From NCBI GenBank assembly GCA_030681895.1, contig JAUXRI010000243.1:1-39528 (forward strand): a stretch of 39,528 nucleotides of DNA, given 5' to 3'. Every line of letters starts with the position of its first letter. The first letter of the stretch is position 1. Positions 6,403 to 9,074 of the stretch are shown piece after piece. Origin of the DNA: Myxococcales bacterium (lineage in GTDB: Bacteria; Myxococcota; Myxococcia; Myxococcales; Myxococcaceae). Position numbers and translations under genes: made by a program. Under the pieces are notes generated by a model. That model saw nothing but the letters and a program-made list of their open reading frames with translations. It did not search any database and was not told the origin of the DNA.

Positions 6403-7263
6403 GTGACTGACGCATTGAGGCTGACCGACGTTCGGCGACGGTTTGGAAAAGCCATCGCCCTCGACGGACTCTCGCTCGCGGTACGGCAGGGTGAAATCTA
6501 CGGTTTCCTGGGCCGCAACGGCGCGGGCAAGACGACGACGCTGCGCATCCTCACCGGGGTGCTCCACGCCGACGCGGGAACCGTGGAGCTGCTCGGCCAG
6601 CAGCTCAAAAAAGTTCCCGTCGAGCTCAAGCGCCGTATCGGCTCGGTCTCGCAGGAGCAGCACTTCTACCCGTGGATGACGGGGCGCGAGCTCGGCCGCT
6701 TCGTGAAGGGCTTCTACCCGACGTGGGACCAGCCCGAGTTCGAGCGCCTCGCGAAGCTGCTCGACGTCTCTCTCGACAAACGCGCGCAGGAGCTCTCCGG
6801 CGGCACGCGCACCAAGCTGGGCCTCGCGCTCGCGCTGGCGCCACGGCCTGACCTGCTGCTGCTCGACGAGCCCACCACCGGCCTCGACCCCGTCGCGCGC
6901 CGCGAGTTCAACGATCTCGTCTCCACCATCGTGAAGGAGCGCGGCTGCACGGCCTTCCTCTCGTCTCACCTCGTCGACGAAGTGCAGCAGGTGGCCCACC
7001 GCGTCGGCATCATTCAGTCGGGGAAGATGCGCATCGAGGGTGAGGTTCCGTGGCTGCTCGAGTCGGTGAAGCGGGTGCGCCCGCTGGAGCCGTTGGTTGA
7101 ACTGCCGCCCGGGTTCGAGGTGGTGCGTGGAGACGTCTGGCGCGCGACGCCCGAGACGTGGAGCGCCACGCCGTTTCCCGAGGGCACCGTCATCGAGCCG
7201 CTCAGCCTCGAAGACGTCTTCCTCGCCTTCGCCCGCACCGACGCCCTCGCCACCGCGGCATGA
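6403..7263 (+). CDS. ABC transporter ATP-binding protein.
   Basis: It has Walker A (GRNGAGKTT), an LSGG signature (ELSGGTRTKL), Walker B (LLLLDEPTTGLD) and an H-loop. The start is GTG at 6403. The stop overlaps the next gene's ATG. Confidence 0.9.
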   Translation: MTDALRLTDVRRRFGKAIALDGLSLAVRQGEIYGFLGRNGAGKTTTLRILTGVLHADAGTVELLGQQLKKVPVELKRRIGSVSQEQHFYPWMTGRELGRFVKGFYPTWDQPEFERLAKLLDVSLDKRAQELSGGTRTKLGLALALAPRPDLLLLDEPTTGLDPVARREFNDLVSTIVKERGCTAFLSSHLVDEVQQVAHRVGIIQSGKMRIEGEVPWLLESVKRVRPLEPLVELPPGFEVVRGDVWRATPETWSATPFPEGTVIEPLSLEDVFLAFARTDALATAA

Positions 7264-9074
7264 GACGCATCGCCCTCAAGGAGCTGCGTGAGCACGGCTG
7301 GGTTCTCTCCGTGCTCTTCGTCCTCTTCGGGCTCGGCCTCGCCGTGTCGCTCAACCGCGGCGACGAAGAGGGCGGGCGCTTCTCGGCGCTGAAGGACTTC
7401 CTGCTCACCTACGGCCTCGTCGCCGCGCTCGTTGCCGGCAACCGCCTGGTGGTGCGCGAGTACACCGGCAAGACGCAGCTGTTCCTCGAGGTGCTGCCCA
7501 TCAGCCGGCTGCGCGTCGCGCTTTCGAAGTGGCTCTTCGGGTGGGGCTGGGTCTCGCTCGCGGCCGTGTCGGCCTGGGGCGCGACGTGGTGGTGGCAGGC
7601 GCGCACGCTGCCGGTGCCATTCGATGACGCGCTCCACGCGCTGGTGCCTGCGTTGCTGTGGCTCACCACGTTCTGGTCGACGTGTTTCGTCGCGGGCCTG
7701 CTCGGGCGCTACCGCCTGCTCTTCTGGGTCGTCTTCGGGCTGCTGCTCTACGCGCTCGACGAGGTCGGCCAGGTGCAGGTGATGGAGACGCCGCCGTTCC
7801 ACATCGTCTCCGAGGCCCTCGCCGTCGCGAACGCGTGGCCCGCCACCATCGACGTCGTCGTGTGTCTCGTCATTACGGCGCTGGGCCTGGGGCTGGGGCT
7901 GCTCCTGGCCACTGCCGGTGAGGGCAGCATCGCCGCGACGCTCTCGGGCCGCATGACGTCACGCGAGCGAATCCTCTCGTTCAGCGTGGTGCTCGTCGGC
8001 TTCATGCTCTTCAGCGTGCTGACGCGGCATCGAGACCGGCCTGCGTTCGCGCTCGAGTCGGTGACCCCGAAGGACTCTCCCGTCGGGCCCATCGGCGTGT
8101 TGCCCGGTGACGGCGTGAGCGACGAGGTGGCGCAGGCGTTGGTCGAGTCGATGGCCGTCGACGTCGTCACCTTCGTGCAGGCGATGCAGTACCCGAAGCT
8201 GGCCGGCGTCTACGTGGTGTCGCAGCGTGGGCTCGACCCCGACGTGATGCTCCGCGTGCCGTTGGGAGAGAAGGACGGCATCGTCTACCGCGCGAACATC
8301 GCCGACCCGCGCTTCGACGCCATCAACCTGCGCTACCGCATCCTTCACTCAGTCGTCGGTGACGTGACGGCGTCGCGCGCGCTGGAAGAGGACCGGCACT
8401 GGCTGCTCGACGGCTTCGCCTCGTACTGGACGGTGCGCGGAGATGCCGACGCTCGTGCGCTGCTGAGGAAACGCGCGGCGGCCTCGCCCATCGGGCTGAC
8501 GGTCGAGTCGGTGCGCCGATGGAACGAGACGTTCGAAGCGGCGGGCGACTGCTTCGGAATGGGCATCAGCTTCACCCTCGTCGACGCGCTCATCGACGAG
8601 CTCGGCGAGGCGCAGGTCATCGAGCTGGCCCGGAGCACCTTCGTGAAGCCGCACCGCGACCTGCGCGACATGCTCTTCGAGAAGAAGCTCGTCGCGATGC
8701 TCGCCGAGAAGAAGGTGCCCTTCGAAGCGCTGGTGGCGCGCGCCGATGCGGCTCGACGCAACGCGGGTGGCTCGCTCGGGTACGAGGGCGGAATCGAGCT
8801 GGTGCCGCAAGGTGGCGGGCAGACGCGGCTGAAGTTCTCCCTGAAGAAGCACGGTGAACCGGTGACGCGATGGCGTGGGCTCACCGCGTCGACTGGCCCC
8901 TGGCAGCAGGGCATCGGTGACAGCGAAGCGGCGCGGGTCGACGCGCGCGGCGGCCAGGCGATGGCGGCGTCGACGTTCTCGTCGGGCGAGCGGCTCTTCG
9001 CGGCCATCGAGGTCGACGACCCCGAGCTCAAGTGCAGCGCGCGCGTGCTGCAGTCGTGGCGGGTGCTCCCGTGA
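7260..9074 (+). CDS. ABC-2-type permease fused to a C-terminal M1/gluzincin-like domain whose catalytic motif is degenerate (predicted pseudo-peptidase).
   Basis: The N-terminal ~260 aa are polytopic and carry an ABC-2-like motif (REYTGKTQLFLEVLPISRLRVALSKWL). In the C-terminal domain, ILHSVVGD stands where HExxH is expected, and LLDGFASYW resembles the M1 'NEGFATY' third-ligand segment with E changed to D. The ATG at 7260 overlaps the ATPase stop (ATGA). Confidence 0.75.
   Translation: MRRIALKELREHGWVLSVLFVLFGLGLAVSLNRGDEEGGRFSALKDFLLTYGLVAALVAGNRLVVREYTGKTQLFLEVLPISRLRVALSKWLFGWGWVSLAAVSAWGATWWWQARTLPVPFDDALHALVPALLWLTTFWSTCFVAGLLGRYRLLFWVVFGLLLYALDEVGQVQVMETPPFHIVSEALAVANAWPATIDVVVCLVITALGLGLGLLLATAGEGSIAATLSGRMTSRERILSFSVVLVGFMLFSVLTRHRDRPAFALESVTPKDSPVGPIGVLPGDGVSDEVAQALVESMAVDVVTFVQAMQYPKLAGVYVVSQRGLDPDVMLRVPLGEKDGIVYRANIADPRFDAINLRYRILHSVVGDVTASRALEEDRHWLLDGFASYWTVRGDADARALLRKRAAASPIGLTVESVRRWNETFEAAGDCFGMGISFTLVDALIDELGEAQVIELARSTFVKPHRDLRDMLFEKKLVAMLAEKKVPFEALVARADAARRNAGGSLGYEGGIELVPQGGGQTRLKFSLKKHGEPVTRWRGLTASTGPWQQGIGDSEAARVDARGGQAMAASTFSSGERLFAAIEVDDPELKCSARVLQSWRVLP

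Follow-up and report, generated by a model that had tools for sequence, protein, structure and literature searches.

Three translationally coupled genes in a 39,528-nucleotide stretch of DNA from a Myxococcales bacterium (contig JAUXRI010000243.1, hereafter the window) probably encode one ABC machine, in which two paralogous permease-peptidase fusions, A and B, would form a heterodimer with B as the sole catalytic subunit and A as a pseudo-peptidase kept by selection. Judged by their sequences, A and B are an old, selected pair of one live and one dead peptidase domain. The cassette is widespread and its domain family is apparently undescribed. It would provide a bacterial example of paralogues that form an obligate live/dead pair, in which the dead copy was fixed before the cassette spread, and would place the asymmetry of an ABC system in the extracytoplasmic module and not in the nucleotide-binding sites.

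Organisation of the cassette

The cassette consists of an ATPase gene followed by genes A and B (Table 1); the coordinates and reading frames that a preliminary description of this DNA gave for A and B are correct. The genes overlap by 4 bp at each junction. At the ATPase/A junction the ATG of A lies over the TGA of the ATPase gene (ATGA, 7260-7263), and at the A/B junction the GTG of B lies over the TGA of A (9071-9074). A and B are matched over 100% of their length by homologues of the same size (604 aa and 656 aa). The ATPase gene is the only one in the cassette, and its product carries canonical Walker A (GRNGAGKT), signature (LSGGT), Walker B (LLLLDE) and H-loop (SH) motifs, so that the asymmetry of the system is located outside the membrane. 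The parallel drawn earlier with the degenerate nucleotide-binding sites of heterodimeric ABC exporters is therefore an analogy only: an asymmetric pair is indeed present, but the nucleotide motifs are canonical.

Table 1. Coordinates of the cassette genes and of the domains and residues of A and B in the window
Feature	Position	Strand	Basis
ABC ATPase gene, nucleotide-binding subunit, 286 aa	6403-7263	+	PF00005 E 1.6e-29
Gene A, ABC-2 permease fused to a predicted catalytically dead M1-like domain, 604 aa	7260-9074	+	
A membrane domain, residues 1-257, N-terminal amphipathic helix and ~7 TM helices, ABC-2/type V fold	7260-8030	+	
A pseudo-gluzincin domain, residues 268-502, thermolysin/M1-like fold without zinc ligands	8061-8765	+	
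A degenerate HExxH position, H363-S-V-V-G367, general-base Glu and second His gone	8346-8360	+	
A LLDGFASYW, residues 382-390, remnant of the third-ligand helix (M1 'WLNEGFASY'), D384 in place of the zinc-binding Glu	8403-8429	+	
A M434, aligned with invariant Y442 of B (presumed transition-state Tyr)	8559-8561	+	hhalign register, column counts
A C-terminal beta-sandwich, residues 506-602, fibronectin-III-like	8775-9065	+	
Gene B, ABC-2 permease fused to a predicted intact M1-like zinc peptidase domain, 656 aa	9071-11041	+	
B membrane domain, residues 1-264, ABC-2 fold, ~7 TM helices	9071-9862	+	PF12679 34.8 bits (cut-off 27.2), PF12730 27.1 bits (cut-off 27), hydropathy, model
B gluzincin (M1-like) catalytic domain, residues 284-520	9920-10630	+	Foldseek IRAP/ERAP1/ERAP2/tricorn F3, E 5e-5 to 1e-3; PDB profile match to aminopeptidase N active-site stretch
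B HETSH, residues 364-368, predicted zinc ligands H364 and H368, general base E365	10160-10174	+	
B E391 in LDEGLASW, predicted third zinc ligand, 22 residues after H368	10241-10243	+	Aligned with NEGFA Glu of aminopeptidase N
B Y442 (Y-x-x-G445), candidate catalytic Tyr resembling M1 'YxKG'	10394-10396	+	Motif and spacing
B C-terminal beta-sandwich, residues 522-610	10634-10900	+	Model
B covarying Cys pair C587/C606 in the beta-sandwich	10829-10831, 10886-10888	+	Co-occurrence 70 both / 61 neither / 3 one

Homology and predicted fold of A and B

A and B share one architecture, an ABC-2 (type V) membrane domain of ~7 helices followed by an M1-aminopeptidase-like domain and a beta-sandwich. They are paralogues over their full length: hhalign of the two family profiles gave 99.8% probability (E 1.3e-28) over 565 columns. 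The alignment pairs H363, S364, G367 and D384 of A with H364, E365, H368 and E391 of B, and the predicted helices agree. Pairwise BLASTP of A against B aligns only the membrane domain (E 7e-5); the correspondence of the sites becomes visible with family profiles. In structure searches the best matches of both periplasmic domains were M1 proteins, among them APN, ERAP1, IRAP, LTA4H and tricorn F3, the match extending over an M1 catalytic domain and the beta-sandwich after it, and both C-terminal domains are predicted to adopt an M1/thermolysin-like fold.

The assignment of the permeases to ABC-2/type V is based on membrane profiles (above the cut-off for B), on the predicted type V membrane fold and on the cognate ATPase gene. 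The ABC-2 profile scored below its cut-off for the window copy of A (15.8 bits), and PF12730 was matched by 38 of 50 A-family members at E<=0.01. Type VII permeases have four helices and carry their periplasmic domain between the first two of these. A and B do not conform to this type (MacB, LolCDE, FtsEX), as they have ~7 helices and a C-terminal domain, and their best membrane-fold matches are of type V and not MacB-like.

The C-terminal domains of A and B are probably periplasmic, judging from the ~7 hydrophobic helices, the K/R-rich N-terminus and TM6-TM7 loop, and the covarying Cys pair of B. Because of the seventh TM helix, everything that follows it in A would lie in the periplasm; directly after this helix, the sequence RHRDR (three Arg) runs counter to the positive-inside rule.

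The predicted active site of B

As stated in the preliminary description, the signature of B is intact, with HETSH followed by E391. H364, E365, H368 and E391 are invariant both in the family alignment (55/55) and in the related loci (79/79). Y442 lies 78 residues after H364 and is invariant in the locus set (77/77) and nearly so in a second set (132/134); by motif resemblance and spacing it is a candidate equivalent of the M1 catalytic Tyr. Among the matches listed, the set including Y442 was found in 143 of 145 further cluster representatives, the two exceptions being short proteins of 365 and 518 aa. In the predicted structure H364, E365 and H368 sit on one helix (358-385) and E391 on the next (387-398). 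This arrangement of an HExxH helix and a Glu on the following helix, together with a thermolysin-like fold (Foldseek E 5e-5 to M1 enzymes), places B in the gluzincin clan MA(E), and B would accordingly be expected to act as a peptidase.

The 'M1-like spacing' described previously is approximate. The arrangement is similar, but 22 residues separate HExxH from the Glu instead of the 18 of M1 (HExxH-X18-E), a 4-residue insertion compared to aminopeptidase N. PF01433 did not match the window copy of B at E<=1 and gave weak matches for 2/55 members of the B family (best E 1.2e-3). GxMEN is the M1 exopeptidase motif, whose Glu binds the free N-terminus of the substrate. This Glu is not conserved in the B family (R28, P18, A7 and E7 of 79; GSMRN at residues 336-340 in the window). 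The unconserved GxMEN Glu, the spacing of 22 and the unmatched Pfam M1 model led us to reject B as a bona fide M1 aminopeptidase. Since GxMEN is not conserved, the motifs leave room for various specificities and even substrate classes (peptide or other amide). No NCBIfam model matched A, and the only one for B was GldF (TIGR03518; 24.2 bits), so far below its cut-off of 288.5 that B was also rejected as a GldF gliding-motility ABC permease.

The degenerate site of A

At the positions matching the catalytic set of B, A carries H363, S364, G367, D384 and M434. In the hhalign register, HSVVG and LLDGFASYW occupy the homologous positions, in agreement with the motif loss described before; the exchange of the invariant Tyr of B for M434 is a further loss, absent from that description. 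The full catalytic set is missing from A in 85/85 loci, which come from genomes and metagenomes of at least seven phylum-level groups, and HExxH is absent from this site in all 61 proteins of the A family; given the invariance of the B residues, chance is excluded as the origin of this contrast. The pseudoenzyme reading of A proposed earlier, for which orthologues had been named as the check, was therefore upheld, with B intact as the partner and the degenerate copy under purifying selection (see below). The retention of the first His, stressed in the same description, is true for the window; with counts of 25/50 in the family alignment and 26/85 in the locus set, however, His at position 363 marks the Myxococcaceae clade alone and not the whole family. 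Position 364 is Glu in 31/85 and Ser in 19/85 loci, position 367 is His in only 2/85 loci, both without the first His and the Glu, and position 384 is Asp in 70/85 and Glu in 7/85. No Tyr was found at position 434 among the listed loci (column counts).

LLDGFASYW is the most conserved stretch of the dead domain, with L383, G385 and W390 near-invariant, as are E377 and W381 just upstream of it. The most variable part of the domain is the helix equivalent to HExxH. Nowhere in the periplasmic part of A is a His conserved at >=85%, and no Pfam peptidase model matched A. A Cys pair of A (C431/C592) was dropped as evidence, as its co-occurrence is only partial (79 both, 44 one, 12 neither). Altogether, A has the homology and predicted fold of an active enzyme family, lacks the catalytic residues and is kept by selection, as expected of a pseudoenzyme.

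Distribution and selection

In a one-genome-per-species collection, ~130 stretches in at least seven phylum-level groups matched the cassette. Its hosts include Myxococcota, Oxalobacteraceae, Steroidobacteraceae, Verrucomicrobiota, Planctomycetota, Acidobacteriota and Vulcanimicrobiota, and B alone is represented by 433 clusters at 50% identity (E<=1e-30). The order ATPase, A, B on the same strand is kept in all 86 related loci with enough flank, the ATPase gene being directly upstream of A wherever the upstream flank sufficed. Loci with A only or B only were not found among those examined with enough flank, the most divergent included. When the flanking ORFs of the 86 loci were compared all against all by BLAST, no conserved neighbour and no linked substrate or accessory gene was found beyond close relatives (at most 5 loci). 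PADLOC gave no match for A or B, so that the cassette is not a known defence system.

The HMM scores separate the A and B families cleanly (~10-fold, in every locus), which indicates one ancient duplication. No outgroup was found, neither a fusion encoded by one gene and presumably homodimeric nor an A whose site is intact: the best 150 matches of the B profile against 1.84 billion representatives were all of the B type. In several phyla, at identities as low as 16-25%, A is still degenerate. All three domains of A have dN/dS values of 0.06-0.34, and the dead domain is thus under purifying selection. It diverges faster than that of B: in 59 distant loci, identity to the window copy is 26% for the domain of A and 36% for that of B, while the membrane domains are at 30% each.

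A proposed ABC machine and alternative explanations

The single ATPase gene, the strict co-occurrence, the fixed order and the translational coupling suggest that A and B form a heterodimer and that A has a substrate-binding role. In the machine that we propose, a dimer of the ATPase would act on a heterodimer of the paralogous ABC-2 (type V) permeases, each with an extra seventh TM helix leading to an M1-like domain and a beta-sandwich in the periplasm. B would hold the single, zinc-containing active site. A, which arose when the entire fusion gene was duplicated in the distant past, no longer has the general base, the second His, the third-ligand Glu or the Tyr. Opposite the site of B, its dead domain may supply the other, non-catalytic half of the module, whether as a wall, a lid or a surface for substrate binding. 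ATP binding and hydrolysis in the cytoplasm could either hand a membrane-derived or exported peptide to this site or open and close the A/B pair. The lid or gating role and the coupling to ATP are conjecture, guided by analogy to mitochondrial processing peptidase (MPP) and to NosDFY/CcmAB, the latter being ABC-2 systems that drive periplasmic events.

A different role of the motor is conceivable, albeit unlikely: it might transport nothing and only pass ATP-driven movement to the periplasmic domains, with B not acting on transported cargo. NosY and CcmB, which are among the closest structural relatives of the predicted membrane domain, belong to complexes that drive periplasmic assembly or release and not classical transport, and the cassette has no linked gene for a substrate or precursor. 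However, the true exporters PmtD, ABCG and Wzm score equally well. This explanation overlaps with the heterodimeric machine and is compatible with it.

A bolder form of the proposal, which we regard as distinctly doubtful, is that the cassette encodes an ATP-powered periplasmic protease whose ABC motor opens and closes a live/dead M1-like clamshell via the ABC-2 halves. If true, this would be an energy-dependent gated peptidase for the ATP-free periplasm, acting for instance on peptides pulled out of the inner membrane. It would also be a new functional class of ABC systems and a new chambered-peptidase design, parallel to the MPP/M16 clamshells but mounted on a transporter.

It is rather improbable that A and B are unpaired and form two homodimeric transporters on a shared ATPase, one with two live and the other with two dead domains that might serve, for instance, as a binding or sensor module. 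Many ABC-2 permeases are homodimeric, among them NosY and Wzm, which are both structural matches of the membrane domain. Against this, every examined locus with enough flank has A and B side by side, always in the same order and accompanied by just one ATPase gene, and their translational coupling in the window suggests equimolar synthesis, a pattern typical of heterodimeric permease pairs.

We give even less weight to A still being an enzyme, with relocated or alternative catalytic residues or with a non-peptidase activity. Pseudoenzymes with relocated catalytic residues are documented in general (PMC10211241). In A, acidic residues are conserved around the former active-site helices (E377 in 130/135, D326 in 122/135, D384 mostly Asp), and from the sequence this cluster could bind a different metal or ligand, for instance as a carboxylate-based metal site. 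The domain has no conserved His, though, and lacks the canonical general-base Glu and the Tyr; moreover, the HExxH-equivalent helix is its most variable part, and its divergence, faster than in B, is as expected once catalytic constraint is gone.

That A is a copy of B that decayed recently or was sequenced wrongly, through strain-specific motif loss or as an incipient pseudogene, has next to no probability: the window copy, with its first His and an Asp in place of the third ligand, could be taken for recent drift, but the ORF is intact, the A/B separation holds in every locus, and the conservation across phyla together with the dN/dS values of the dead domain excludes strain-specific decay and sequencing error. 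Equally negligible is a chance likeness of DGFASYW and DEGLASW in non-homologous C-terminal regions, an idea fed by the lack of significant BLASTP similarity outside the membrane domain and of a Pfam peptidase match for A, and refuted already by the full-length hhalign homology and the shared predicted fold.

Comparison with known systems

In the mitochondrial pair MPP alpha/beta, the dead subunit is essential, helps to form the clamshell active centre and adds substrate binding (PMC11266112). The active-beta/inactive-alpha pair is a closer analogy to A/B than degenerate nucleotide-binding sites (PMC11266112). Like A/B, MPP and the bacterial two-gene M16B heterodimers are pairs of paralogous proteins with a metallopeptidase fold, of which one has kept and the other has lost its zinc site, and the prokaryotic M16B versions are encoded by adjacent genes. 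However, M16 enzymes have an inverted HxxEH motif and the clan ME fold, and they are soluble with neither an ABC permease fusion nor a link to an ATPase, whereas A/B are gluzincin/M1-like and tethered to a transporter. Chloroplast FtsH/FtsHi are membrane-anchored, ATP-linked zinc-peptidase complexes that mix active and HExxH-less subunits (PMC11266112). They belong to family M41 and are AAA+ hexamers in which ATPase and peptidase lie on one side of the membrane; in fold and architecture they are unrelated to A/B.

NosFY(D), PmtCD, CcmAB, Wzm-Wzt and ABCG5/G8 differ from A/B in having no C-terminal seventh helix with a fused peptidase-like domain. The asymmetry of ABCG5/G8 concerns the nucleotide-binding sites; in the cassette the one ATPase is canonical and it is the periplasmic part that is asymmetric. 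PCATs resemble the cassette in that a peptidase is covalently fused to an ABC transporter polypeptide. Their peptidase is a C39 cysteine peptidase, N-terminal and cytoplasmic, and their exporter fold is a different one; PCATs form homodimers and are encoded beside precursor-peptide genes. In contrast, the predicted metallopeptidase of the cassette is C-terminal, probably periplasmic and joined to an ABC-2 fold, it would be paired with a dead copy in a heteromer, and no cargo gene is linked; no C39 domain was matched in its proteins.

Our literature search found no description of an ABC permease-peptidase fusion or of its pairing with a pseudo-peptidase, and a search on NosDFY mechanotransduction returned nothing relevant. 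The words 'ABC transporter' and 'permease' are absent from the pseudo-peptidase review PMC11266112. Neither Pfam nor NCBIfam has a model for the periplasmic domains of the cassette. The cassette raises the questions of how many active sites are needed, what the dead domain contributes and whether ATP hydrolysis in the cytoplasm is coupled to proteolysis in the periplasm. Genetics and biochemistry are feasible in cultured hosts, namely Archangium gephyra, Cystobacter fuscus, Massilia spp. and Sulfidibacter corallicola.

B shares HExxH and an NEGFA-like third-ligand helix with the M1 enzymes APN, ERAP1, IRAP, LTA4H and tricorn F3, and its Y-x-x-G Tyr may correspond to theirs. Unlike these, A and B are without the N-terminal beta domain and the helical domain IV, and they have an ABC-2 permease in the membrane instead of a single anchor. 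The structural matches also included the TFIID entries 7edx_B and 5fur_I, chains that we take to be TAF2, a dead protein with the M1 fold.

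Organisation of the gene cassette

The window has a G+C content of about 69% and is matched best by metagenome-assembled genomes of Myxococcaceae (MAG EUL_206 at 94% protein identity). An ABC ATPase gene is followed here by gene A, an ABC-2 permease fused to an M1-like domain with a degenerate zinc motif, and by gene B, its paralogue with an intact motif. The three genes are translationally coupled, as the start codon overlaps the previous stop at both junctions (ATGA between ATPase and A, GTGA between A and B). Homologues of exactly 604 and 656 aa match A and B end to end, which fixes their start codons. 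The motifs and coordinates quoted for A and B in the preliminary description agree with the translated sequences. The same description had drawn an analogy with degenerate nucleotide-binding sites; the idea of asymmetry holds but its location does not, since the Walker A, signature, Walker B and H-loop motifs of the ATPase are all canonical and the asymmetry lies elsewhere.

Features of the window, with residues of A paired to B as in the profile-profile alignment
Feature	Window	Strand	Residues	Details
DUF1501 protein	1081-2502	+		PF07394, E 6e-23
Ala-rich ORF	2534-4819	+		761 aa
GreA-like gene	4829-5287	-
ORF	5325-6374			349 aa
ABC ATPase	6403-7263	+		PF00005, E 1.6e-29
Gene A	7260-9074	+		604 aa
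A, loop before seventh helix	7923-7967		222-236
A, degenerate motif			363-367	HSVVG
A, third-ligand remnant			382-390	LLDGFASYW
A H363				pairs with B H364
A S364				pairs with B E365
A G367				pairs with B H368
A D384				pairs with B E391
A M434				pairs with B Y442
Gene B	9071-11041	+		656 aa
B, GxMEN-like motif	10076-10090		336-340	GSMRN
B, zinc motif			364-368	HETSH
B, third-ligand Glu			E391	in LDEGLASW
B, sandwich cysteines	10829-10831, 10886-10888		C587, C606
B, C-terminal tail	10949-11038		627-656
EF-G paralogue	11289-13271	+
Vault protein-like ORF	18444-20795	-		783 aa

A and B are paralogues over their whole length

Pairwise BLASTP aligned only the membrane domains of A and B (E 7e-5), so the alignment of the C-terminal motifs required a proper test. 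When family alignments of A (A1, n=50 sequences) and B (A2, n=55 sequences) were compared as profiles, 565 columns were aligned with 99.8% probability (E 1.3e-28), establishing the homology of the C-terminal regions to which pairwise BLASTP had been blind. The AlphaFold models made from the family alignments are of high confidence (mean pLDDT 86.6 for A and 86.2 for B) and have a common architecture: an amphipathic N-terminal helix is followed by about seven helices in the membrane, then by an alpha/beta domain whose two long helices bear the motif positions, and finally by a C-terminal beta-sandwich. Using Foldseek, the C-terminal halves of both proteins matched the M1 aminopeptidases IRAP, ERAP1/2 and tricorn factor F3 (E 5e-5 to 1e-3). 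The B-family profile, searched against the PDB, found the aminopeptidase N active site (AHExxH...WLNEGFASY aligned to AHETtH...vldEGLASW) with a four-residue insertion. Based on these matches, A and B are whole-length paralogues, in each of which an ABC-2 (type V) permease is joined to a gluzincin domain of M1-like type and to a sandwich resembling fibronectin III.

The site is live in B and dead in A across the family

When the proteins were scanned with a regular expression, all 106 members of the B family had HExxH at the expected place, against none of 61 members of the A family. P0043, an A-family protein, has an unrelated HEWAH about 115 residues beyond the expected site, and the sample included P0062, whose match covers just 6% of the query. 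We then collected 80 related loci from a genome scan with the A profile and seven from metagenome contigs. All long ORFs of loci L001-L085 were classified with HMMs of both families, the scores of which split A from B about ten-fold in each locus, and residues were counted once these ORFs had been placed in the family alignments. The B genes carry H-E-H-E in 79/79 cases, and Tyr in all 77 that cover its position. Among the A genes the full catalytic set was found in 0/85. His is present at position 363 in 26/85, Glu at 364 in 31/85, and His at 367 in two of the 85, neither of which has the first His or the Glu; Asp occupies position 384 in 70/85 and Glu in 7/85, and Tyr was found at position 434 in none of the loci listed. 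The first His, described as kept in A, is indeed present in the window, but this is a peculiarity of the Myxococcaceae clade.

A B-profile search of 1.84 billion cluster representatives gave 433 clusters at E<=1e-30, and about 1,800 further proteins scored between E 1e-30 and 1e-3. Of 145 new B-type representatives, 143 carry H-E-H-E-Y; the two exceptions are short (365 and 518 aa), the latter matching the profile only up to position 382. With no A gene holding the set and B intact throughout the loci and in nearly all representatives, it is an ancient and universal trait of the family that A is dead and B live. The degenerate copy is thus consistently degenerate, which the preliminary description had itself named as the point on which it could be refuted; together with the full-length profile homology this confirms the original observation.

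Selection on the dead domain

The dead domain of A has dN/dS values of 0.06-0.34 against the close relatives L006, L009, L044, L013, L008 and L011, the same range as the membrane domain of A and the domains of B. Averaged over 59 distant loci, identity to the window is 30% in both A and B for the membrane domain, 26% in A and 36% in B for the catalytic-type domain, and 21% and 26%, respectively, for the beta-sandwich. This pattern fits a loss of catalytic constraint in A while structural or binding constraint was kept. Outside the membrane, 18 positions of A and 42 of B are at least 85% conserved. Those of A include no His and cluster at the former third-ligand helix and the preceding segment (E377, W381, L383, G385, plus W390). 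The interpretation of A as a pseudoenzyme is supported by the missing catalytic set and the retained selection, and we are highly confident that A is an ancient, selected and catalytically dead paralogue.

In the membrane domain, A has 28 conserved positions versus 22 in B. The cytoplasmic loop before the seventh helix of A contains the near-invariant, A-specific G222, L228, M232, R235 and E236, whereas the matching region of B has two conserved positions only (F226 and G230). The dead subunit may thus be specialised for a task in the cytoplasm or in coupling.

Location of the C-terminal domains

ABC-2 permeases have six helices, with both termini in the cytoplasm. Hydropathy and models give about seven helices for A and B, with many K/R residues in the N-terminus (MRRIALKELREH) and the TM6-TM7 loop. 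As the seventh helix is additional to the six-helix ABC-2 arrangement, the C-terminal domains should be periplasmic. RHRDR directly after the seventh helix of A is a mild counter-indication. The sandwich cysteines C587 and C606 of B are both present in 70 family members, both absent in 61 and single in three. This covariation suggests an optional disulfide, gained and lost as a pair. Such a bond would imply an oxidising compartment and fits a position outside the cytoplasm. B ends in an acidic tail (EEPVEPDIETFDFDGG...DLPDAG) past the last family-conserved position, which is predicted to be disordered (pLDDT <50). In two B-type proteins, P0172 (970 aa) and P0257 (757 aa), the profile match spans the first ~615 residues, and 140-350 extra residues follow at the C-terminus.

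Comparison with known systems and proposed mechanism

Membership in known families was judged feature by feature. B has an M1-like fold and counts as a gluzincin, but does not belong to family M1 by X18 spacing, GxMEN or profile match. HETSH and E391 are present as described, and the M1-like spacing is approximate, with a four-residue insertion relative to aminopeptidase N. GSMRN looks like GxMEN, the exopeptidase motif of M1 enzymes, with Arg replacing Glu; across the B family this position is R/P/A/E and so is no conserved specificity determinant, which speaks against B being a classical N-terminal exopeptidase. A and B both qualify as ABC-2/type V permeases. The system was rejected as a PCAT (peptidase-containing ABC transporter), as MacB/FtsEX-type and as GldF. 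The nearest functional precedents are the alpha/beta pair of the mitochondrial processing peptidase (MPP) and bacterial two-gene M16B peptidases, whose fold and motif are unlike those of A/B.

Each cassette has one ATPase gene, two permease-peptidase fusions that always occur together, and one complete gluzincin site per gene pair. The complex would contain the ATPase subunit twice and A and B once each, and we consider an A/B heterodimer likely. Zinc and peptidase (or related amidase) activity would be confined to B, with the dead domain of A as a non-catalytic partner. In M1 enzymes the active site is enclosed by helical domain IV, which is absent from the A and B models. In MPP, it is the dead alpha subunit that makes the clamshell complete, and it also binds substrate (PMC11266112). 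By analogy with both, the A domain might face the cleft of B and supply the missing wall or lid, a tentative assignment that we hold somewhat less probable than its opposite. Relatives of the membrane domain include PmtCD and ABCG, true exporters of amphipathic peptides and lipids, as well as NosFY and CcmAB, in which ATP powers events in the periplasm. Accordingly, the motor may pass on membrane-derived or exported peptides, gate the A/B pair, or do both; ATP-gated proteolysis seems improbable. Any mechanism beyond a dead partner of a live peptidase is offered as a hypothesis.

No Pfam or NCBIfam model covers the putative periplasmic domains, and homologues are publicly named 'ABC transporter permease', 'ABC-2 family transporter', multi-copper-enzyme-maturation permease or 'hypothetical protein'. 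A literature search of incomplete coverage, so that an earlier account is possible, returned no description of a permease-peptidase fusion. Heteromeric ABC-2 permeases and dead peptidase partners are each known; joined on one machine they are, as far as we found, undescribed.

Distribution and genomic context

In every locus with enough flank, the ATPase gene precedes A and A precedes B, all on one strand; P0168 and P0166, the B proteins that diverge most, likewise lie within such cassettes. Carriers include Myxococcota (Archangium, Cystobacter, Pyxidicoccus, Citreicoccus and many MAGs), Oxalobacteraceae (Massilia, Herbaspirillum), Steroidobacteraceae, Verrucomicrobiota, Planctomycetota, Acidobacteriota (Sulfidibacter) and Vulcanimicrobiota. 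When flanking ORFs were compared all against all, no neighbour was common beyond close relatives, and nothing downstream of B is kept in distant cassettes. The cassette is therefore self-contained, with no linked precursor or cargo gene.

Directly 3′ of B lies a complete elongation-factor-G paralogue with all five EF-G domains. Three close relatives (L006, L008 and L011) share a plus-strand ORF downstream of B, which need not be this paralogue. Upstream of the cassette are the DUF1501 gene, the Ala-rich ORF, which is hydrophobic around residues 540-590, the GreA-like gene downstream of it, and the 349-aa ORF; Pfam searches gave no match for the Ala-rich and 349-aa ORFs. The 783-aa ORF matches the major vault protein (MVP) of eukaryotes, with hits to the MVP shoulder domain (PF11978, E 6e-30) and to a vault repeat (PF17795, E 4e-7), and this vault-protein homologue in a myxobacterial genome is perhaps worth a study of its own.
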